The notes: generated by a model from the letters alone, not told the origin. A stretch of 64,000 nucleotides of DNA from an uncultured virus (IMG/VR IMGVR_UViG_640069328_000004) (IMGVR_UViG_640069328_000004), one strand, 5' to 3'. Numbered from the stretch's first letter, positions 2,137 through 46,455 are shown. Numbers and translations: made by a program.

Positions 2137-3231
2137 TTAGCCCGAATCGCCAGCCTTGATCGCGGAACCGTTTACAGGACCGTTTACAGGTTTCGTTCCC
2201 AGTCCGTGCCTCTCGAGCTTCGCCACGGCCGATTCCCCGAGCCTCCGATCGCGCCCGAGATAGTGCTTCGACAGGATCGCCTCGGCGTCTTTCAGGCTGT
2301 GGCCGGTGAGGGCGGCGATCTCCGGAACACTGCATCCGGCAAGCGCGAGGAAGGTGACGGCCGTGCCGCGCAGGTCGTGGAAGGTCACGCCCTCGATGCC
2401 GGCCGCGGCCTGCGCCTTGCCGAAGCTCGTCTTGAAACCGTCACTCGTCCAGGGCTGGCCGCGCGAGGTCTCGCAAATCGTCAGGGTCTTACGCCGCGCC
2501 TTCGCCGCGTCCAGCGCCTCGCGCAGTTGCCGCGCCACCGGGATCACCATGTGCCGCCCGGTCTTCGACTGCTTGAGCCGGATCACCTGCCCGTCGTAGG
2601 CGCTCCAGGTGAGCTTCAGGATGTCGGCCTGGCGCTGTCCGGTCCAGATTGCCAGCAGGAACGGTAGGCGGACCGGCTTCGGCGCCTTGTCGAGGAAGGC
2701 CGCGATCTGCGACTCGGTCCAGATGTCGTCTGCGCGCGACCCGGCATAGAGGCGGCCCGGCTTCTCGCAGGGGTTCGACGGAATCTTCCGCCGGTCGTAG
2801 GCCCACGCGAGAATCAGCGCGAGGACGCTGAAGGCATAGTCCGCGCTGCGCTTGCTCTTCTGCCCGAGCCGGTCGCGCCAGTCGAGGAACTCGCCCCGCA
2901 CCCGAGGATCAGCCAGCGCCTTAAGCGGCATGTCTCCGAATTCGGCCTCGATTTGCCGGATGTGGCGGATGTAGCCAGCCTTCGTTGTGGGCGCGAGGAC
3001 GGTGAATGCTGGTGTCTGCTGGTAGGCGGTAATCAGCGCCTGCAACGTGCCATCATGATGCACGGGCTTCTGGCGCGCCGCGTGCGCGGCGTCATAGGCA
3101 GCACGGAACTCCGGGCTGTCCGGCTCGGCCTCGATCTTCGGGCCGCCACGCCACGCGTAGTAGTGCACGGCGACCTTGCCGCTCACGAGCCGGCGCTTGA
3201 CCTTATGAACGCCCTTCAACTCGACCCTCAC
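2137..3231 (-). CDS. int: Tyrosine recombinase (integrase), P1
   Basis: TGQRQADI, FHDLRGT, LTGHS and HY catalytic motifs; GTG start chosen by alignment with the 364-aa P2 paralogue. Confidence 0.93.
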   Translation of the reverse strand: MRVELKGVHKVKRRLVSGKVAVHYYAWRGGPKIEAEPDSPEFRAAYDAAHAARQKPVHHDGTLQALITAYQQTPAFTVLAPTTKAGYIRHIRQIEAEFGDMPLKALADPRVRGEFLDWRDRLGQKSKRSADYAFSVLALILAWAYDRRKIPSNPCEKPGRLYAGSRADDIWTESQIAAFLDKAPKPVRLPFLLAIWTGQRQADILKLTWSAYDGQVIRLKQSKTGRHMVIPVARQLREALDAAKARRKTLTICETSRGQPWTSDGFKTSFGKAQAAAGIEGVTFHDLRGTAVTFLALAGCSVPEIAALTGHSLKDAEAILSKHYLGRDRRLGESAVAKLERHGLGTKPVNGPVNGSAIKAGDSG

Positions 3232-3403
3232 GCTTCGCCTTCCATGCTCCGAATGCATCCTCGACCGGCGTCGCGCTCGTCCTCTCCCGGATCACGATTC
3301 GCCCGTCCGGCATGATCTCGCAGGCCCCCACCTCCATGCCAGCATTCTTCGCGGCGCGGATCGCGCGGGTCAGGTCGACCTGGCGGAATGCGGCCCTTGT
3401 CAT
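3203..3403 (-). CDS. Putative excisionase / recombination directionality factor
   Basis: 66-aa basic ORF overlapping the int start; near-identical paralogue at 40879-41079. Confidence 0.6.
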   Translation of the reverse strand: MTRAAFRQVDLTRAIRAAKNAGMEVGACEIMPDGRIVIRERTSATPVEDAFGAWKAKREGRVEGRS

Positions 3404-8324: not shown

Positions 8325-8657
8325 TCACATGCCCCGCATGGCAGCGGCCTGCTCGCGCATCGTCGAGGCCACGTCATTGGCGTGCGCCCAGAGGACGGTG
8401 GCGACGAAGAGGAAGCCGAAGAGCGCCAGTGTCCCCACGAGGAAGGCGGTCAGGTTCGGCCCGAGCGGGCTCGGCTTGCTCGTCCGGAAGGTCGGCCGCG
8501 GCACAGCGCGGTGCAGCTGGCGGCCCATCGCGACGGCAAGCTCATGATCCGACAGGAGACGGCTGGCGGTATCGCGGCCCTCGGCCGTGGGCGCGTGCTC
8601 GGCACGATGGCGGGCCATGTTGAGGGCGCGGGGCGAGAGAGGAAGATCCTGTTTCAT
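8325..8657 (-). CDS. Small membrane protein
   Basis: One TM segment; paralogue at 43781-44113. Confidence 0.7.
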   Translation of the reverse strand: MKQDLPLSPRALNMARHRAEHAPTAEGRDTASRLLSDHELAVAMGRQLHRAVPRPTFRTSKPSPLGPNLTAFLVGTLALFGFLFVATVLWAHANDVASTMREQAAAMRGM

Positions 8658-8812
8658 TGCCCGAGCGCCTCCCGATACTTGCGGTGGATGGCGGCACGCT
8701 CCGCGGCAACATCAGGGTTTGCGTCGGCGCCGATGAGCCACGCGCGCGCGCACGCCAGCGCCATGGCGACGATGAGAAGGAGGCCGGTCAGGGCGAAGGT
8801 CAGGAGGGTCAC
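8654..8812 (-). CDS. 52-aa membrane micro-ORF, first gene of the left operon (not in track)
   Basis: GTG start after GGGAG; MTLLTFALTGLLLIVAMALACARAW...REALGQ; ATGA-coupled. Confidence 0.6.
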   Translation of the reverse strand: MTLLTFALTGLLLIVAMALACARAWLIGADANPDVAAERAAIHRKYREALGQ

Positions 8813-8845
8813 GGGTGGTCTCCCATCTGGAGTTGATGGGAGCAG

Positions 8846-8896
8846 AGGATATGGAGAAAAACTCCACTGTCAATCAAAGAGTGGAGAAATAATCCA
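8846..8896 (-). promoter_or_regulatory. P1 PL promoter with two CI operators
   Basis: Minus strand TTGACA(8873-8868)-N16-TATCCT; TGGAG-N5-CTCCA at 8852-8866 and a variant at 8882-8896. Confidence 0.75.
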
Positions 8897-8925
8897 TTGC
8901 TAGAACGGATTGAGAACGAGAGAAT
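8897..8925 (+). promoter_or_regulatory. Putative SOS promoter with alphaproteobacterial LexA box
   Basis: TTGCTA-N17-GAGAAT with GAAC-GGATTGA-GAAC (8903-8917) in the spacer. Confidence 0.65.
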
Positions 8926-8954
8926 GAGTCGAAAAAGGACGGGGGGGTGATCGT

Positions 8955-9071
8955 TTGAGGTATTCGTTGCGGGATTTCATAGTGCTGCTGGTCGCCACCC
9001 TGACAGGGTGGTCTATCAGCGCCATAAGTAGGTTTGTGCCTGGGGGCCGGAAGCGCGGCGCCAAACGCTAG
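8955..9071 (+). CDS. 38-aa micro-ORF convergent on cI (candidate antirepressor; not in track)
   Basis: TTG start after GGGGGTG; MRYSLRDFIVLLVATLTGWSISAISRFVPGGRKRGAKR; stop overlaps the cI stop. Confidence 0.4.
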   Translation: MRYSLRDFIVLLVATLTGWSISAISRFVPGGRKRGAKR

Positions 9072-9400
9072 CTTTCGTTCTCGCCGGGTGGGAGCGAGCG
9101 CAGCTTGTGAAGCTCGGCCAGCAGCTGGTGCCTCAAGCTCGAAGGCGTGTCTTGTACGTTCGCCCGATAGAGATAATTCAGTCCGAAGTCATATAGATCC
9201 GCGATGAGCGCGGCTTTTGTGATCGACAGCCCCTCCTCGCCCTTCTCAATTCTGGTGAGCGCGCTGCGGTCTAGGCCCACAGAGTCTGCTAGCTGAGCCT
9301 TGCTGAGACCGAGCGTCTCCCGCATCGCCGTAAGACGTAGTCCGACCCGCACGGGGTTCATTTCGGGAGAGAGAAGCGCTTCAAGACGTGGCTTTTTCAT
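9068..9400 (-). CDS. CI-like XRE repressor, no S24 peptidase domain
   Basis: RETLGLSKAQLADSVGLDRSALTRIEKG HTH; divergent from cro; start uncertain. Confidence 0.85.
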   Translation of the reverse strand: MKKPRLEALLSPEMNPVRVGLRLTAMRETLGLSKAQLADSVGLDRSALTRIEKGEEGLSITKAALIADLYDFGLNYLYRANVQDTPSSLRHQLLAELHKLRSLPPGENES

Positions 9401-9420
9401 AGACGCAGCATCATGCGCTG

Positions 9421-9482
9421 CGGAGAAAACCTCCATGGTTTCATTCTCCATCTTGACTGGTGGAGAAAATCTCCATTATGCA
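9421..9482. promoter_or_regulatory. P1 OR: three operators and PR
   Basis: CGGAGAAAACCTCCA 9421-9435, TGGTTTCATTCTCCA 9436-9450, TGGAGAAAATCTCCA 9461-9475; TTGACT 9453-9458. Confidence 0.8.
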
Positions 9483-9488
9483 TACCCC

Positions 9489-9737
9489 ATGTCAGATCTA
9501 TGCACTGTCCGTGACGTCATCGCGCTCTGGCCTAGCAGGTCAGAGATGGCTCGAGATCTTACTGCTGTGTCGGCGAGGCCGGTGAGCCTTGGACGCATCC
9601 ACAAGTGGGCGCTGAGCGGAGTTATTCCGGCAGGATACCATGGCAGCATTCTAAGGGCCGCTCAGGCGCGGGGGCTGCACGTCACCGCGGAGGATCTCGT
9701 GCGGGTTCATGATGCCCATGAAAGGGGGGCAGCATGA
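9489..9737 (+). CDS. Cro-like HTH protein
   Basis: 82 aa, VIALWPSRSEMARDL..IHKW...GVIP; first gene of the right operon. Confidence 0.75.
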   Translation: MSDLCTVRDVIALWPSRSEMARDLTAVSARPVSLGRIHKWALSGVIPAGYHGSILRAAQARGLHVTAEDLVRVHDAHERGAA

Positions 9738-38919: not shown

Positions 38920-39315
38920 TCAGAAGCCGGCGATCTCGCGCCGAGCAACCGCGGCGAGGAAGGCCGACCTGGTCATCCCCCGGGCCGACGCCGTGGCATC
39001 GATGGCACGCAGAAGGCCCCGGTCCATGGAGACGTTGACCCGCTCGAGCTTCCCGTCCGCGGGCACATAGGCGAAGGTCATCAGAGAAGCGCCCTCGGCC
39101 AGCGCCTTCCGAACGTCCTCACGAGACTGGATCGCGTCGATGGAGGCGGGCTCGACGGCCGGCTCATCCTCGAACCAGAGGTCGAGCGCCTCCGCCGCTT
39201 TAGCGGGGATCTCCGACCAGTCGTCAGCGGCGGCAAAGCAACCGGGAAGATCCGGGAAGGTGAGGCCATAAGCTGAGTTCGGGTCTTTGTGAACGATTGC
39301 GGTAAAGTAGTGCAT
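38920..39315 (-). CDS. hicB: HicB antitoxin
   Basis: YGLTFPDLPGCFAA...AAEALDLW; RHH RVNVSM...MTRSAFL. Confidence 0.92.
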   Translation of the reverse strand: MHYFTAIVHKDPNSAYGLTFPDLPGCFAAADDWSEIPAKAAEALDLWFEDEPAVEPASIDAIQSREDVRKALAEGASLMTFAYVPADGKLERVNVSMDRGLLRAIDATASARGMTRSAFLAAVARREIAGF

Positions 39316-39366
39316 GGCAAGCGGCTCCAAATGGGCAGGCAGTAGGGGGCGAGAGTAGTGCCGGGC

Positions 39367-39812: not shown

Positions 39813-40907
39813 TTAGGCAGAATCGCCGCCCTCGGTTCCGCGCCGTTTTACAGCGCGTTTTACAGCGGGCGTTCCGACTCCGTGCCTTTCGAGCTTCGCC
39901 ACGGCGGATTCTCCCAAGCGGCGATCCCGCCCGAGATAGTGCTTCGACAGGATCCCCTCGGCATCCTTGAGGCTGTGCCCGGTGAGCGCAGCGATCTCCG
40001 GCACGCTGCAGCCGGCGAGCGCCAGAAAGGTAACGGCCGTCCCCCGGAGATCGTGAAACGTCACGCCCTCGATGCGGGCCGCGGCCTGCGCCTTGCCGAA
40101 GCTCGTCTTGAAGCCGTCGCTGGTCCAGGCCTGGCCGCGTGAGGTCTCGCAGATGGTCAGGGTCCTGCGCCGCGCCCTCGCCTCCTCCATCGCCTCGCGC
40201 AAGGGCTGAGCCACCGGGATCAGCATGTGCCGGCCGGTCTTGCTCTGGCGCAGCCGAATCGCCTTCCCGTCATAGGCGGTCCAGGTGAGCTGGAGGATGT
40301 CGGCCTGACGCTGGCCGGTCCAGATCGCCAGCAGGAACGGCAGGCGCACCGGCCTCGGCGCGGCGGCGAGGAAGGCCGCGATCTGCGCCTCGGTCCAGAT
40401 CGAGTCGGCGCGCGAGCCCGTATAGAGCCGGCCGGGCTTCTCGCAGGGGTTCACCGGGATCTTCCGCCGGTCGTGCGCCCAGGACAGGATCCGGGCGAGG
40501 ACGCTGAAGGCATAGTCGGCGCTGCGCTTGCTCTTCTGCGCCAGCCGGTCGCGCCAGTCGAGAAACTCGCCCCGGACGCGCGGATCGGCCAGCGCCTGCA
40601 CCGGCATGTCGCCGAAGTCGGCCTCGATCTGGCGGATATGACGGATGTAGCCCTTCCGCGTCGCCTCGGCGAGATCGGTGAAGGCGGGCGTCTTCTGGTA
40701 AGCCGTGATCAGCGCCTGCAGCGTGCCATCGTGATGCGCGGGCCGGTCCCGCGCCGCGTGAGCGGCGTTGTAGGCCGCCACGAACTCGGGGCTTCCGGGG
40801 GCCGCGTCGATCCTCGGGCCGCCGCGCCACGCATAGTGGTAGACGGCGATCTTGCCGCTCGCCAGCCTGCGGCGAACCCTATGAACGCCCTTCAACTCGA
40901 CCTTCAC
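39813..40907 (-). CDS. int: Tyrosine integrase, P2
   Basis: Same catalytic motifs as and closely similar to P1 Int. Confidence 0.93.
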   Translation of the reverse strand: MKVELKGVHRVRRRLASGKIAVYHYAWRGGPRIDAAPGSPEFVAAYNAAHAARDRPAHHDGTLQALITAYQKTPAFTDLAEATRKGYIRHIRQIEADFGDMPVQALADPRVRGEFLDWRDRLAQKSKRSADYAFSVLARILSWAHDRRKIPVNPCEKPGRLYTGSRADSIWTEAQIAAFLAAAPRPVRLPFLLAIWTGQRQADILQLTWTAYDGKAIRLRQSKTGRHMLIPVAQPLREAMEEARARRRTLTICETSRGQAWTSDGFKTSFGKAQAAARIEGVTFHDLRGTAVTFLALAGCSVPEIAALTGHSLKDAEGILSKHYLGRDRRLGESAVAKLERHGVGTPAVKRAVKRRGTEGGDSA

Positions 40908-41079: not shown

Positions 41080-41453
41080 GGCGCGTCCCCCGATCCGGGC
41101 ACCGCCGCATGAGGCTCATCCCGGCTAAGCTCGCCCTCGTCCTCCACAGCGAGCGCGCTCCAGTCGGTCGGATCCCAGACCGCCCCGAGCCCCCCGCATT
41201 CCCGGCAGCCCGTCCCCAGAGCGCAACTGAACACCGGATCGGTGCCGGCTGTCGGGTAGCCTTCATCGGTCGCGTAGCAGCCGGTGCAGGACACCCATGC
41301 CCCGCATTCCTCGCTCAGGACGCGCGCAACATCGTCCGCGATGGCCTGCCATGTCGGCGGCCCAGCCTCCCCCAAGCATCCCCGGTGTGCCCGCTCCCGG
41401 GAAAGCTCGGCCCGCAGCCGCGTGATCTCCGCCAGATCCAGAGCATCCGTCAT
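41076..41453 (-). CDS. Cys-rich hypothetical protein (CTGC...CRECGGLG)
   Basis: ATGA-coupled on both sides; GGAGG RBS. Confidence 0.6.
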   Translation of the reverse strand: MTDALDLAEITRLRAELSRERAHRGCLGEAGPPTWQAIADDVARVLSEECGAWVSCTGCYATDEGYPTAGTDPVFSCALGTGCRECGGLGAVWDPTDWSALAVEDEGELSRDEPHAAVPGSGDAP

Positions 41454-43261
41454 TCTGTCACCTCCGGAAAGCCGAGCTCGGCCGGCACCCACGCGTCGAT
41501 CTTCGCGCAGTCCTCGCGGTTGAGGCCGAGGGCCTCGCGGGTGGCGGGGTCGGCGAAGAGCGCCTCGAGGCGCTTCGCCTTCTCCCCCTTCTTCAGCTTC
41601 TGGAAACTCTGATCCGCCTCGGCCGCCGGCACGAGCTCGCTCCAGAGCCGGTCGAGATAGCCCGCGCTGCAGCGCCCGAGGAAGCCCTGGGCGGTCGGCG
41701 TCCAGATCCGGCGCACCTCCACCCCGAGCTGGCGCGCGAGCGCCGCCGAGAGGCCGGAGCTGCCGGTGCAGAAGGTTCGCGCCAGCGCCTCGGTCAGGAT
41801 CTGGTTGCGGTGCTTCTTCCCCAGCGCCCGGAAGGCCTCGAACTCGGCCGGGGTGCCGTCCGGGCCGAGGCTCGTATTCGGTTCGAGCCGTGCCGCCAGC
41901 CGCGGCGGGTAACGCGTGCCGTCGGCCTTCTCCGGCGCGATGGGCTGGTCGGTCGGCGAGACCGCGAGCGGGCGCGCCCAGGGGCGGAGGCCGCCGCCGA
42001 GCGAGAAGGCCAGCAGGTCGAGCATGAGCTCGGACTGATCCATCAGCCGCGCCTGCAGCGCCCCGAGCCGGATCCGGTGCAGGTCCTCGATCAGCGATTG
42101 CGGCAGGTCGGGCGCGGCCTCGGCCGCGCCGCGCGGGACCGCCCGCGGCTGCTGATAGGCGCGCTCGACCGAGAGCCCGTCCCGGCTGCTGCAATAGACG
42201 AAGATCCCGGCCGAAGCGCGCTGCGCGTCGGTGAAGCCGCCCTCTCTGCGAGCCTCGAGCTCCGTGAGGCGCGCGCGGCCGGCCTCGTCGAGGGCGTCCT
42301 CGGTCTCGCGCTCCTCGAGCGCCGCGAGCTCCGCTTCCTCTCCTTCCGAGAGCTTCCCCGGCCGCGCGTAGAGCCGCACCAGCTTCTGCGTGACGGTCCA
42401 GGAGACATATTCTTCCGGCACCCATGTCGCCCATTCCCAGCCCTCTTCCGCGCGGATCCGCTCCGCCTCGGCCGCCCCCTTCTCGGCGAAGAGCCGGTCG
42501 AGGAGCGCCTCGTCCTCCAGCAGCGTCCGGTCGGCGAAGAGATCGCGCTGAGAGGTTCCGCCGGCCGCCTGATAGGCCTCGATCCCCACGAAGACCGCCC
42601 GTCGGTCGGTCGAGGGCACGGTGCCGGGCGTGAGCTCGCGCCGCACCTGCTCGGGCCGCACGTCGCGGCCCCGCACCGAGGTGAGAACTTCGAGGCAGCG
42701 CGCGCCGCTCGGCGCCAGCGTCAGCGCCTTCGCCATCTCGAGCGAGATCTCGTTCGCGCGGAGTGCCGCCAGCGCCTCGGCCGGCAGATCCGCGAGCTTG
42801 AGGCGCCGCTCGACATGGGCCTCGGAGCGCGCGAAGCTGCGCGCAATCCGCGACAGGCTCGCACCGCGCTCGCGCATCGCGGCATAGGCGCGGACCTCGT
42901 CGGCCGGGTGCAGCGCCGAGCGGGCGCTGTTCTCGGTGCCCGCCCAGGCCACCGCCTCCTGCAGGTCGGCCGTCACCTTCACCGGCACCGGATCTATCGG
43001 AATGAGATCCGGGTGCCGGCTCCAGCCCTCGGCCGCGAGGCGCTGCAGCGCGCGGAGCCGGGTGCCGCCGCCCACGATCTCGACGCCGGAAGGCGTCAGA
43101 TGGCCGATCAGGTTCTGGAGAAGCCCCGCCACGGCGAGGCTCTCGGCCATGGCCTCGACCTCCTCGGCCGCGATCTCCTGACGGCTGTTCAGGGTCGAGA
43201 GCCGGAGCTCGGCGAGCGGGATGAGGCGCAGATCGCCTCGGGAGATGAAGTCCTTAGCCAT
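41450..43261 (-). CDS. Large ParB/Spo0J-like protein
   Basis: GLLQNL, GGGTRLRAL, ENSARSALHPADE, HTH, RRLKLADL; 603 aa. Confidence 0.85.
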   Translation of the reverse strand: MAKDFISRGDLRLIPLAELRLSTLNSRQEIAAEEVEAMAESLAVAGLLQNLIGHLTPSGVEIVGGGTRLRALQRLAAEGWSRHPDLIPIDPVPVKVTADLQEAVAWAGTENSARSALHPADEVRAYAAMRERGASLSRIARSFARSEAHVERRLKLADLPAEALAALRANEISLEMAKALTLAPSGARCLEVLTSVRGRDVRPEQVRRELTPGTVPSTDRRAVFVGIEAYQAAGGTSQRDLFADRTLLEDEALLDRLFAEKGAAEAERIRAEEGWEWATWVPEEYVSWTVTQKLVRLYARPGKLSEGEEAELAALEERETEDALDEAGRARLTELEARREGGFTDAQRASAGIFVYCSSRDGLSVERAYQQPRAVPRGAAEAAPDLPQSLIEDLHRIRLGALQARLMDQSELMLDLLAFSLGGGLRPWARPLAVSPTDQPIAPEKADGTRYPPRLAARLEPNTSLGPDGTPAEFEAFRALGKKHRNQILTEALARTFCTGSSGLSAALARQLGVEVRRIWTPTAQGFLGRCSAGYLDRLWSELVPAAEADQSFQKLKKGEKAKRLEALFADPATREALGLNREDCAKIDAWVPAELGFPEVTE

Positions 43262-43385: not shown

Positions 43386-43784
43386 TCAGGCCATGCCGAG
43401 CGCGGCCTTGTAGAGCTCGAGGAGCGTCTCCTCCTCGGCGATGTCGTCGGGGGTCCGCTTGCGGAGCGCCACGATCATCCTGAGGATCTTCGGCGCATAG
43501 CCCCTGCCCTTCGCCTCGGCCATCAGCTCCTTCTGCTGGCCGCCGATCTCTTTCTTCTCGGCCTCGAGCTGCTCGTAGCGCTCGATGAACTGCCGCAGCT
43601 CGTCGGCCGCGACCTGATAGGCGGCCTCGGCCACGGCGCGGTCGGCGGGCGTCTCCTTCATCGGCGGCTTGCGGATCCGGCCGCTGTCGATGGCCGCAGC
43701 CATCCGGTCGAGATCGGCGGCATTGAGGCTCTCGACCGGCACGGGACGCGGGCGCGGCGCGGGATGCGGGGCGGCCTCCATCAC
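43386..43784 (-). CDS. gapR: GapR/DUF2312-family nucleoid-associated protein
   Basis: AADELRQFIERYEQLEAEKKEI...AEAKGRGY...LELYKAALGM. Confidence 0.88.
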   Translation of the reverse strand: MMEAAPHPAPRPRPVPVESLNAADLDRMAAAIDSGRIRKPPMKETPADRAVAEAAYQVAADELRQFIERYEQLEAEKKEIGGQQKELMAEAKGRGYAPKILRMIVALRKRTPDDIAEEETLLELYKAALGMA

Positions 43785-44307: not shown

Positions 44308-44340
44308 CGTAAACTCCCATGTGAGTGCGATGCGCCATAG

Positions 44341-44389
44341 TTCGCATGTGGCGAACTTTCTTTCAAGCAATATATTCGCTATTAGCGAA
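44341..44389. promoter_or_regulatory. P2 OL: two operators
   Basis: TTCGC-ATGTG-GCGAA 44341-44355; TTCGC-TATTA-GCGAA 44375-44389. Confidence 0.8.
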
Positions 44390-44570
44390 CTCTCGGGTGA
44401 CTGACGATTCGTGACCGCCCGACCCTATCAGTCGGAGGGCGCTGAAGAGGATGTTCCTGATCGGGTAACGCTTCGAAGCTGCATGTGGGATGTCCGCCGC
44501 TCGCCGGAAATGGCGAGGACGCGGCGCGGCGCGCCAGCGACTGATCTGTCCCGGAAGCTGCGCCTACAGT

Positions 44571-44585
44571 GAACTTAGTAAGAAC
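44571..44585 (+). promoter_or_regulatory. Putative LexA (SOS) box
   Basis: GAAC-TTAGTAA-GAAC, 8 bp upstream of an ATG. Confidence 0.65.
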
Positions 44586-44593
44586 GATAGGAT

Positions 44594-44770
44594 ATGGAAA
44601 TGACCCGGAAATCAGGCGATGACGTTCTCGCGAAGCTCATCGCGATCATGTTGCGCCTCGATTCCGCTTCGCGGGCCGAGGTTCTGGCGGAGATAGCTGC
44701 GCGTGCTCAAGAAGACCAATCGCATGCCGAATTACAGCCTTCTGATCGTGCTCCGGCAGATCTCTCATGA
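44594..44770 (+). CDS. 58-aa micro-ORF convergent on and overlapping cI (candidate antirepressor; not in track)
   Basis: MEMTRKSGDDVLAKLIAIMLRLDSASRAEVLAEIAARAQEDQSHAELQPSDRAPADLS; AGGA upstream; alternative ATG at 44600. Confidence 0.5.
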   Translation: MEMTRKSGDDVLAKLIAIMLRLDSASRAEVLAEIAARAQEDQSHAELQPSDRAPADLS

Positions 44771-44993
44771 CCTCGAGATGAGCCATCAGATCGGTGCCGG
44801 CCTGATCGTCCTCGATGAGCGCCTGAACGGGAACTTCCATCGTATGAGCAAAGGCTTTCAGAAGCCGACCGCTGGGGAACTTCTTCCCGCTCTCGATCTC
44901 CGAAATGTAGCTCTTACTAGAGCCAACCATCTCGGCGAGCTGCTCCTGGGTAAGGTTCTTTGCTTTCCGTAGTTCTTTGAGGCGTACACGCAT
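44646..44993 (-). CDS. CI-like XRE repressor of P2, no S24 domain
   Basis: RLKELRKAKNLTQEQLAEMVGSSKSYISEIESGKKFPS; 115 aa. Confidence 0.88.
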   Translation of the reverse strand: MRVRLKELRKAKNLTQEQLAEMVGSSKSYISEIESGKKFPSGRLLKAFAHTMEVPVQALIEDDQAGTDLMAHLEVMRDLPEHDQKAVIRHAIGLLEHAQLSPPEPRPAKRNRGAT

Positions 44994-45007
44994 TGGCCAT
45001 TCTTGGC

Positions 45008-45077
45008 ATCGCTGAGAGCGAAACGCTAATCGCACATAGCGAACTTCCGCCTTGCGTGCTTGTTCGCTATGTGCGAA
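45008..45077. promoter_or_regulatory. P2 OR: three operators
   Basis: ATCGCTGAGAGCGAA 45008-45022, ATCGCACATAGCGAA 45029-45043, TTCGCTATGTGCGAA 45063-45077. Confidence 0.8.
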
Positions 45078-45087
45078 CTTGCGGCGC

Positions 45088-45324
45088 ATGGCTAAGCTCT
45101 CCCAGTACCTGACTGACAACCGCACGACGCAGCGCGAGTTCGCTGCCCGTCTCGGGACGTCGGCTAGCTACCTCAGCGAAATCGCTGGTGGTCGAAAGAC
45201 ACCTAGTCTCGAACTCGCGTTCGCCATCGAGCGCCTGACAGCCGGGGCGGTTCCCGCGGCCAGCTGGTTGGCGGGTTTCGATGGAGCGAACGCCGCTCAA
45301 GAAGATAAAAAGGGGGCGGCGTGA
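45088..45324 (+). CDS. Cro-like XRE protein of P2
   Basis: TQREFAARLGTSASYLSEIAGGRKTPSLELAFAIERLT. Confidence 0.85.
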   Translation: MAKLSQYLTDNRTTQREFAARLGTSASYLSEIAGGRKTPSLELAFAIERLTAGAVPAASWLAGFDGANAAQEDKKGAA

Positions 45325-45662: not shown

Positions 45663-45907
45663 GGCGGGTCTATTGGTATCTCATGCAGCGGTTCTACGAG
45701 GCGCGGTCCTTCCGCGCCTTCTGCAACCATCTGCACTTCAAGAAACAGTCGCGGAAATATTCTTCCCGGCTGGCCGAGACATGGCTGCACCGTGAGGACG
45801 GGAGCGAGGAGCATTCGCCTTGCCGCCTGCCCTCCTGCTGGTGGCTCGTGCCGTCCGTGGTGACCGGCACCCTGATCCTCGCCACGGCTTTCGGAAGCCT
45901 ACTGTGA
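45659..45907 (+). CDS. Small protein with C-terminal TM segment
   Basis: Paralogue of 10137-10388. Confidence 0.65.
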   Translation: MRRVYWYLMQRFYEARSFRAFCNHLHFKKQSRKYSSRLAETWLHREDGSEEHSPCRLPSCWWLVPSVVTGTLILATAFGSLL

Positions 45908-46455
45908 CCGCCGCCGCGCCCTTGCCTGTACAGGACGCGGCCACTTCGCCGGGGGCTGCGGCCTCCGGCGCTTTTCGATCGAGCGGGTGGGCCGCGCTGC
46001 GGCGTCATCCTGCAGGGCGCGCGGATCTCCTGCGCTGGCATGCCGACCCGGCACTCGTCGCGCGGCATGCGCGCTGGGGCCGGCCGGTCTATCTGGCGAG
46101 CCCTTACACGCTCCGCGCGGTCGGCCCGGACGGGCGCTGGTCGCGGGATCAGTCCGAGGCCGCGATGGCCGACGCCGCGCGCGAGGTGGCCCGGCTCCTC
46201 GAGGTCGGCGTCACGGCGATCTCGCCGGTGGTGCTCTCGGCCGCCGCGCTGCATGCCACCATGTACCCCCGGCTCCGGATCGACCCGTTCGCTCCGGTCC
46301 TCTGGGAGGATTGGTGCCGCCCCATCCTGTCCGTCTGCGCCGCCGTCGTGGTCCCCAAGATCCGCGGCTGGACGCAATCCACCGGCATCCGGCACGAGGT
46401 CGCATCCGCCCTCGCCGCCCAGGTGCCCGTCTTCATCTATGGAGGCCTGCCATGA
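45904..46455 (+). CDS. DUF1937-like protein
   Basis: VYLASPYT...GWTQSTGIRHE; paralogue of 10531-11049. Confidence 0.75.
   Translation: MTAAAPLPVQDAATSPGAAASGAFRSSGWAALRRHPAGRADLLRWHADPALVARHARWGRPVYLASPYTLRAVGPDGRWSRDQSEAAMADAAREVARLLEVGVTAISPVVLSAAALHATMYPRLRIDPFAPVLWEDWCRPILSVCAAVVVPKIRGWTQSTGIRHEVASALAAQVPVFIYGGLP

Follow-up and report, generated by a model that had tools for sequence, protein, structure and literature searches.

We analysed a 64,000-nucleotide (nt) stretch of DNA from an uncultured virus (IMG/VR IMGVR_UViG_640069328_000004), called the window here, whose immunity region is lambda-like and comes from a Rhodobacteraceae prophage. Within that region lies a gene of 38 amino acids (aa) at 8955-9071 that runs head-on towards the gene of the repressor, cI. 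Comparative sequence analysis leads us to propose that this small gene supplies the SOS input to a prophage with a repressor that does not cleave itself, and that the gene product is a repressor-derived antirepressor gated by host LexA; we put the probability of this reading at roughly 0.55. The elements on which it turns are the following.

8897..8925, plus strand: putative promoter of the small gene, TTGCTA-N17-GAGAAT, read from the sequence
8903-8917, plus strand: LexA box GAAC-N7-GAAC, which occupies nt 1-15 of the promoter spacer
8955..9071, plus strand: small gene, 38 aa, with a TTG start, a member of an uncharacterised family of 34-63 aa
9068..9400, minus strand: cI, with a helix-turn-helix (HTH) domain only, 110 aa from the ATG at 9400, in an open reading frame (ORF) that is open to 9451

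Under this proposal, host LexA would occupy the GAAC-N7-GAAC repeat in the promoter spacer of a lysogen and keep the gene silent. Upon DNA damage LexA would be cleaved and the promoter would fire, and a small helical protein, presumably descended from a copy of the repressor's C-terminal third, would accumulate and bind cI as a decoy subunit. cI would then no longer hold its left (OL) and right (OR) operators, and the promoters PL and PR would open; transcription entering cI from its 3' end may contribute further, as antisense or through interference.

A repressor that is blind to damage by itself is the starting point of the proposal. An earlier note on this DNA had described CI as an HTH protein of about 110 aa without an S24 autoprotease domain, and this description is borne out by Pfam, in which HTH_3 and HTH_31 are the sole matches; the protein has an XRE-type HTH domain and no S24 domain for RecA-stimulated self-cleavage, as is the case for repressors that are countered by LexA-controlled antirepressors. 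Translation from the first ATG of the ORF (9068-9451) would give 127 aa, and the ATG at 9400 aligns with the starts of homologues. Distant cI homologues, 24-56% identical, were collected from three sources: representatives of the host family at one genome per genus (30 of 401 genomes matched at E<=1e-5) and, by alignment-based scans, genome_contigs (36 loci) and viral_contigs (34 loci). All 47 homologues that we examined (48 with the window's cI) are likewise HTH-only, with lengths of 89-128 aa, and the relatives from genome_contigs come from Rhodobacter, Paracoccus, Roseovarius, Leisingera, Ruegeria and similar genera. With the single cI sequence as query, genome_contigs yielded no relative, and the matches in viral_contigs were all near-identical copies. 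The nearest genome, G001, carries no copy of the cI immunity region and has only short matches to its flanks, and none of the 50,697 records in a collection of isolated phages carries the window's cI at E<=1e-8, the matches at 1e-3 being generic HTH matches.

We next consider the small gene itself. For its detection in relatives, nine small ORFs were aligned and only the 30 N-terminal columns were taken into a profile. At 66 of 79 loci, the nine training loci included, we observed a convergent ORF with a start codon in the same place beside the cI homologue; eleven of the other loci have no profile match and two have no start codon. These 66 loci collapse to 49 unique sequences. Substitutions at codon positions 1, 2 and 3 number 434, 283 and 784, respectively (first 26 codons, 50 pairs), which is a coding pattern, and G-rich stretches resembling Shine-Dalgarno sequences stand just 5' of the starts in the relatives' upstream sequences. 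The window's own Shine-Dalgarno is a run of seven G, 7 nt before the TTG at 8955. Typical family members have 49-52 aa and the consensus M-x-Y-x3-D-R-x-L-F-x2-A-x2-T-G-x-S-x-D-x2-Y. Judged by this coding signature, the small gene is a real gene and is under selection. The earlier note had called the proposed switch unannotated, and the family of the small ORF is indeed uncharacterised: we found no Pfam, PHROGs or NCBIfam match, and 0 of the 49 members match any PHROG at E<=0.01. It is not wholly uncalled, however, because relatives occur among predicted proteins; a profile search of 1.84 billion representatives returned 85 clusters at E<=1e-3, of which 23 reach E<=1e-10, and almost all have 40-70 aa.

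Several smaller features of this interval can be recorded here. Positions 8995-9011, inside the small ORF, form a perfect 8+1+8 palindrome, CCACCCTG-A-CAGGGTGG, which is not an obvious terminator because no T-run follows it on either strand. A terminator-like hairpin at 9199-9213 on the plus strand was taken as a chance occurrence, since substitutions disrupt it in L008, a relative with 95% identity. Between the window and L008 there are no differences over 8844-9071 (228 nt, comprising PL, the operators, the LexA promoter and the small ORF) and 19 differences, counted from the alignment, in the following 303 nt of cI; a second invariant block extends from 9375 to the end of the alignment at 9500 and holds the cI start and OR. 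At the sequence level, these invariant blocks indicate either constraint or patches of recombination.

The promoter of the small gene is made up of TTGCTA at 8897-8902, a spacer at 8903-8919 and GAGAAT at 8920-8925, so that a host-type LexA site in the spacer overlaps the promoter of the candidate antirepressor gene. The earlier note had read this promoter, the box in its spacer, a CI operator that abuts it at 8882-8896 and the 38-aa ORF whose stop overlaps the cI stop, and every one of these elements is present as described. The same motif is found just upstream of recA and lexA, on the gene's strand, in the related genomes G001 and G390, with two overlapping copies at lexA of G001, and the G001 genome as a whole contains 85 boxes, compared with 28 matches to a reversed-motif control. 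Because of its position at these core SOS genes and its excess over the reversed pattern in G001, we regard the GAAC-N7-GAAC direct repeat as the SOS operator of the host group, in agreement with the note's identification of it as the alphaproteobacterial LexA site; it is presumably the published Rhodobacter LexA site. The operators and the promoter on the other side of the small gene promoter, together with the right operator region, are as follows.

8846..8873, minus strand: PL-like early-left promoter, TTGACA-16-TATCCT, with 10/12 consensus matches in the promoter scan
8853-8866: operator OL1, core GGAGAAAAACTCCA, an exact GGAGAAANNNTCCA site
8883-8896: operator OL2, core GGAGAAATAATCCA, an exact GGAGAAANNNTCCA site
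9422..9475: OR region between cI and the cro-like gene, with operators at 9422-9435 and 9462-9475
9489..9737, plus strand: first rightward gene, cro-like by position, 82 aa

The operator that directly adjoins the -35 element of the small gene promoter, TGGAGAAATAATCCA at 8882-8896, is one of four exact copies of GGAGAAANNNTCCA (8853, 8883, 9422 and 9462), two on either side of cI. When one mismatch is allowed, a scan of the window yields five sites against 0.51 expected, a number that 0 of 100 shuffles reached, and similar paired inverted repeats are present beside the cI relatives. OL1 is located in the spacer of the PL-like promoter, which drives the leftward genes, the first of them an ORF at 8654-8812. 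Since the operators at 8853-8896 belong to this leftward promoter, the small gene promoter stands back-to-back with PL. The centre of OL2 would lie at about -42 from a transcription start that we place near 8932; lambda OR2 has the same geometry, about -42, at PRM. From this arrangement alone, cI at OL2 could activate, repress or ignore the small gene promoter. The 82-aa rightward gene at 9489..9737 has no family match and, by its position, would have the role of Cro. One 379-nt metatranscriptome contig from a synthetic community lies over 8558-8933 and takes in PL with the first leftward genes, and the LexA promoter as far as the inferred +1; it is unstranded, with a depth of 3.8, and therefore neither supports nor opposes a plus-strand transcript. 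Two other RNA runs contained nothing over the region.

Given the box in the window, we determined how often it recurs in relatives, counting exact boxes within 140 nt upstream of the small gene start over the 49 unique loci. An exact box is present on the small gene's strand at 15 of the 49 and on the opposite strand at 5 further loci (three at -26 to -33, two near -135). The total of 20 loci with a box on either strand compares with 0.24 expected from the flanks, where the other 122,031 nt of these loci contain 4 boxes on either strand; this amounts to an enrichment of about 80-fold. The reversed motif occurs at 0 of the 49 loci, and allowing one mismatch adds a single same-strand site. The loci are related, L136 and L137 being near-copies, so the 20 boxes are not independent events; the N7 spacers vary among loci, and box-bearing loci belong to both major clades of the cI tree and to several subclades. 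The layout recurs as well: in 9 of 17 clade-1 rows, the window included, the box begins right after a -35-like hexamer that itself abuts an operator. An operator half-site TCNA followed directly by a -35-like TT[GT]NNN is present at 39 of 49 loci, compared with 2.0 in shuffles, although the opposite-strand control, at 24, is not clean.

Individual loci show how the box varies. L021 and L120 have near-identical immunity regions, and L021 has the exact GAAC-N7-GAAC where L120 has GAGC in the first repeat, which may represent a decayed or weakened site. L113, L116 and L146 have similar inverted GTTC-N7-GTTC boxes, 26-33 nt before the small gene start, which suggests for this subgroup LexA control from the other face or strand.

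We then asked what the small protein resembles. AlphaFold2 (AF2) predicts two helices, 5-17 and 21-27, for the window's protein and three helices, 5-17, 21-26 and 29-40, for a 49-aa member, so that in the models the product is a small all-helical protein like the antirepressors that mimic a repressor. In the ESM Atlas, the best score for the small protein is 0.82, within the range reached by shuffled proteins. Alignments of profiles with hhalign, including comparisons with repressor 2, the repressor of a second prophage in the window that is described below, gave the following values.

All small proteins against all cI: 35%, E 4e-4
Clade 2 (32 loci), small protein 10-40 against cI 56-86 of 95: 87.8%, E 3.3e-6
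Clade-2 small proteins against the non-cognate repressor 2: 4.1%, E 0.01
The window's clade alone, small protein against cI: 0.5%, E 0.11
Small proteins of the window's clade against those of clade 2: 98%, E 2.7e-13

In clade 2, the larger of the two, the likeness of the small protein is to the C-terminal third of the cI beside it. The matched segment of cI comprises the last helices and the tail, around the most conserved block, W-G-V-S-M-D-F-L-Y-R-G, and a G-x-S-[IV]-D-x-x-Y block is common to both proteins. This likeness is not an artefact of overlapping genes, because most of it lies in the part of the small ORF outside the overlap with cI. A register control gave a mean score of +21.8, versus -10 to -32 for shifted registers, but it is biased because the register was derived from the same sequences. 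Had the 3' third of cI been duplicated tail-to-tail in inverted orientation, both the likeness and the arrangement of the two genes would find an explanation.

The predicted fold is also compatible with a different role, in which the small protein binds DNA or assists cI, for example as a second Cro- or Apl-like repressor or as a modulator of OL. The AF2 models look helix-turn-helix-like and the family is basic, the ESM Atlas gives weak leads to HTH families (scores 0.77-0.79), and 29 of the 49 loci have an operator-type site adjoining the promoter without a LexA box, as would fit an early gene controlled by cI. However, the alignment places the small protein on helix 4-5 and the tail of cI and not on the recognition helices, no Pfam HTH model matches at threshold (the best, HTH_17, in 1 of 49 members at E 0.053), 34-63 aa and two or three helices make for a small protein if it is to bind DNA as an independent domain, and the phage already has a gene in the cro position. 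We consider such a regulator unlikely.

The composition of the family bears on another alternative, an SOS-induced peptide whose target is the host; like TisB or SidA it could, for example, be a toxin of the membrane or inhibit cell division, and it would be carried as a moron unrelated to immunity. LexA control is typical of such peptides, and the window's version consists of an 18-residue uncharged stretch followed by a basic tail. Across the family, however, the longest uncharged run has a median of 8 and reaches at least 18 in 1 of 49 members, the window's own; a membrane peptide is unlikely because no other member has a long uncharged stretch, and we rejected the membrane-toxin reading on this family-wide composition. 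The family has a median isoelectric point of 11, and, in correction of the earlier note's description of an amphipathic, basic peptide, its members appear to be soluble helical proteins rather than amphipathic ones of the membrane type. Moreover, the gene is tied to one repressor family and one position, its product resembles cI, and a different repressor family has a different small protein at the same place. A host-directed peptide is thus, in our estimation, very unlikely.

Since the two genes converge, the effector might instead be the RNA: a LexA-gated transcript running head-on into cI would lower cI expression by interference or as antisense, with the peptide being secondary. The stop codon of the small ORF, TAG at 9069-9071, overlaps the cI stop at 9068-9070 on the minus strand, in a tail-to-tail arrangement. 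The overlap by stops that the earlier note had claimed holds for the window but not for eight relatives, in which the small ORF ends 75-88 nt inside cI and its stop stands opposite codons of the invariant Y-R motif of cI; in the second prophage the overlap is about 125 nt. A precedent for an RNA effector exists in lambda, where, in the accessible parts of two reports (PMC5869508, PMC2327240), the oop promoter pO has a LexA site and points head-on at the 3' end of a gene that regulates lysogeny, the non-coding OOP RNA being antisense to cII. Unlike OOP, the transcript here encodes a conserved protein, and its target would be cI. What speaks against the RNA as effector is that the ORF evolves as a protein, with the codon-position pattern given above and a conserved N-terminal motif, that the hairpin at 9199-9213 is broken in L008, and that the window's subclade, with shorter proteins of 34-45 aa ending at or before the cI stop, overlaps cI by the stop codons or not at all. 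Unlike an antisense RNA of the OOP type, the region is protein-coding by its substitution pattern, and in the window it shares only the stop codons with cI. We therefore view an effect through RNA in place of the protein as quite improbable, although the locus may have a dual protein and RNA role.

The architecture that we propose for cI has a counterpart elsewhere in the window, in a second prophage (39813-64000) that lies in tandem with the first. Its immunity region contains the following elements.

44340-45324: immunity region of prophage 2
44565..44593, plus strand: promoter TACAGT-[GAAC-N7-GAAC-GA]-TAGGAT, with the box at 44571-44585
44600..44770, plus strand: convergent small ORF, 56 aa, or 58 aa if read from the ATG at 44594, sharing about 125 nt with the 3' end of repressor 2
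44646..44993, minus strand: repressor 2, HTH_3 only, 115 aa, of a family different from that of cI

The box at 44571-44585 is the only other LexA box in the window, and its geometry is the same as that at 8897-8925. Among relatives of repressor 2, L162, L163 and L164 (45-58% identical) have the box on the strand that converges on the repressor gene, and a related small ORF comes after it; the same holds for the G001 prophage L167 and the metagenome relative L273, while L274 has the small ORF without a box and L294 has the box inside the ORF. Six full-length candidate relatives of repressor 2 were inspected, of which only L273, L274 and L294 have a convergent small ORF within the stretch inspected and only L273 has an upstream box; scans for further relatives returned mostly generic HTH proteins. 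The match between the second small protein and the non-cognate cI, 0.07%, is below that with its own repressor, which is given below. Judging from these sequences, prophage 2 would be an independent replicate, with a LexA box and a convergent small ORF on a different HTH-only repressor. Because of this second tandem prophage, the strain is a polylysogen with two heteroimmune relatives, each with a LexA-box module. TTCGC-N5-GCGAA occurs in four copies, at 44340-44390 and 45028-45078, two per side of repressor 2, and these are probably its operators. The LexA-box promoter of prophage 2 lies about 180 nt from the left operator pair, unlike that of prophage 1.

A number of observations weigh against the proposal that the small gene is a LexA-gated antirepressor. 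The promoter at 8897..8925 is weak, with 8/12 consensus matches by our own count, and was not listed by the scan, whose threshold is 9/12; the box alone is not significant in the window, with 2 matches against 0.80 expected and at least 2 in 19 of 100 shuffles. Nor is the box constant: an exact copy is missing from both strands in 29 of the 49 unique relatives, which makes LexA control frequent in the family (about 40%) but not universal. If cI at OL2 represses the small gene promoter, cleavage of LexA alone would not fire it. With regard to the protein, the AF2 models are only moderate (pLDDT, the predicted local distance difference test, 68.5 for the window's protein and 66.5 for the 49-aa member), and Foldseek with the 49-aa model found nothing in the PDB at E<=0.001, the best match having E 3.5. 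The likeness between small protein and cI is not significant in the window's own clade, as listed above; cognate pairs of small protein and cI are no more alike than non-cognate ones, and no co-variation was found. The second small protein matches the C-terminal helices of its own repressor weakly (hhalign 5.7%, E 0.0067, from 5 sequences). Finally, what the sequences show is the anatomy, a gene that is real and under selection, the recurring LexA motif and, in clade 2, the likeness to cI; LexA binding, induction by damage, contact between cI and the peptide, and an effect on DNA binding we infer.

The first two of these points could also mean that a chance ORF and a chance motif coincide in the AT-richer spacer between cI and PL, and high-GC genomes are rich in spurious ORFs. 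The gene is nevertheless conserved across 49 unique loci with a coding signature, the box is enriched over the flanks as described, and the arrangement is replicated in the second prophage. The feature is lifted above chance because the box and promoter layout recur in relatives and because the window's other box occupies the same architectural position in the second prophage. Thus, coincidence is hardly credible as an explanation, and the LexA-gated antirepressor remains the reading that we prefer.

The principle of such a switch is known. The phages 186 and N15 have non-cleavable repressors and LexA-controlled antirepressors, Tum and AntC, respectively. Likewise, GfoA and GfhA of Gifsy-1 and Gifsy-3 are small LexA-controlled antirepressors that act on non-cleaved repressors, according to the accessible text of the report (PMC3121763). 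The window's prophage would resemble all of these in having a repressor without self-cleavage and a separate small gene with a host LexA site, such that the SOS signal would come through derepression of the antirepressor. There is no sequence relationship to them, however, as no Pfam, PHROGs or NCBIfam family is shared; because of this lack of family homology, the likeness is one of mechanism only. The window's gene also differs in that it lies within the immunity cassette, where its tail meets that of cI and its promoter stands back-to-back with PL, and in that the host motif is the alphaproteobacterial direct repeat, with a LexA box in about 40% of the family.

In its presumed mode of action, the small protein has its closest parallels in SinI, which mimics the oligomerisation domain of SinR, and AimX, which blocks oligomerisation of AimC (bioRxiv 10.1101/2025.11.23.689978, accessible portion). 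As in those pairs, the protein is small and helical, with about 50 aa, and in the larger clade it is similar to the C-terminal part of its repressor; the heterocomplex would block oligomerisation and DNA binding. Unlike in SinI and AimX, what is matched here are the last helices and the tail of an XRE-type repressor with a single domain and not a separate oligomerisation domain; the likeness is significant in the larger clade only and not in the window's clade, and the regulatory input is LexA and not Spo0A or arbitrium. The TF-smORF (transcription factor and small ORF) modules of linear plasmid-like phages do not depend on SOS and are under the control of a transcription factor encoded next to them, as stated in the available part of the source (PMC10432266); the module here is instead wired to a LexA box, without a dedicated activator gene.

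The small protein is thus not a member of the known antirepressor families. The novelty lies in the protein family and the host group, in a gene that sits within the immunity cassette and apparently stems from the repressor, and in the recurrence of the design in two unrelated repressor families. We found no description of such a module, or of SOS sensing through non-cleavable repressors, in alphaproteobacterial phages, in a literature search that lay outside most subscription journals. Tentatively, and doubtful as it still seems to us, we also entertain a broader proposal: prophages of Rhodobacteraceae with repressors that lack S24 might share an undescribed design, namely a LexA-gated decoy of the repressor's C-terminal part, born by tail-to-tail inverted duplication and encoded convergently and usually with overlap; DNA damage would in this way yield a subunit poison of the repressor, the two unrelated pairs would be independent inventions, and the operator at about -42 could add cI-dependent control.

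In prophages with non-cleavable repressors, the way in which DNA damage is sensed has been worked out for only a small number of systems, enterobacterial ones and those of Bacillus. If the proposal is true, it would provide a compact induction module that can be recognised from sequence, a LexA box and a gene of about 34-63 aa by an HTH-only repressor, for marine and freshwater Rhodobacteraceae, whose populations are shaped by prophages and gene-transfer elements. It would also give a rule with which to predict SOS-inducible prophages that are missed by tools based on S24 repressors, and an antirepressor possibly born from the repressor gene of its own phage.

The remainder of the window conforms to two prophages. 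Window G+C is 69%, and the immunity region of prophage 1 is AT-richer, with a G+C of 0.44-0.52 over 8800-8999 versus about 0.7 in the flanks. Prophage 1 spans about 2.1 to 39 kb and has a lambda-like layout: after the integrase comes a leftward early gene block that includes a DNA methyltransferase and DUF2303, and past this block are the immunity region, rightward replication-type genes, and terminase and structural genes. Prophage 2 has a cro-like HTH gene and homologues of the rightward genes of prophage 1. The remaining features are listed here.

2137-3258, minus strand: integrase of prophage 1
39813-40907, minus strand: integrase of prophage 2
41450-43261: ParB-like gene of prophage 2
43386-43784: GapR-like gene of prophage 2
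45820-46455: DUF1937 gene of prophage 2, homologue of an early gene of prophage 1

At the right end of prophage 1, a HicB-like antitoxin gene is present on the minus strand at 38920-39330; it is probably a moron or part of a toxin-antitoxin pair.

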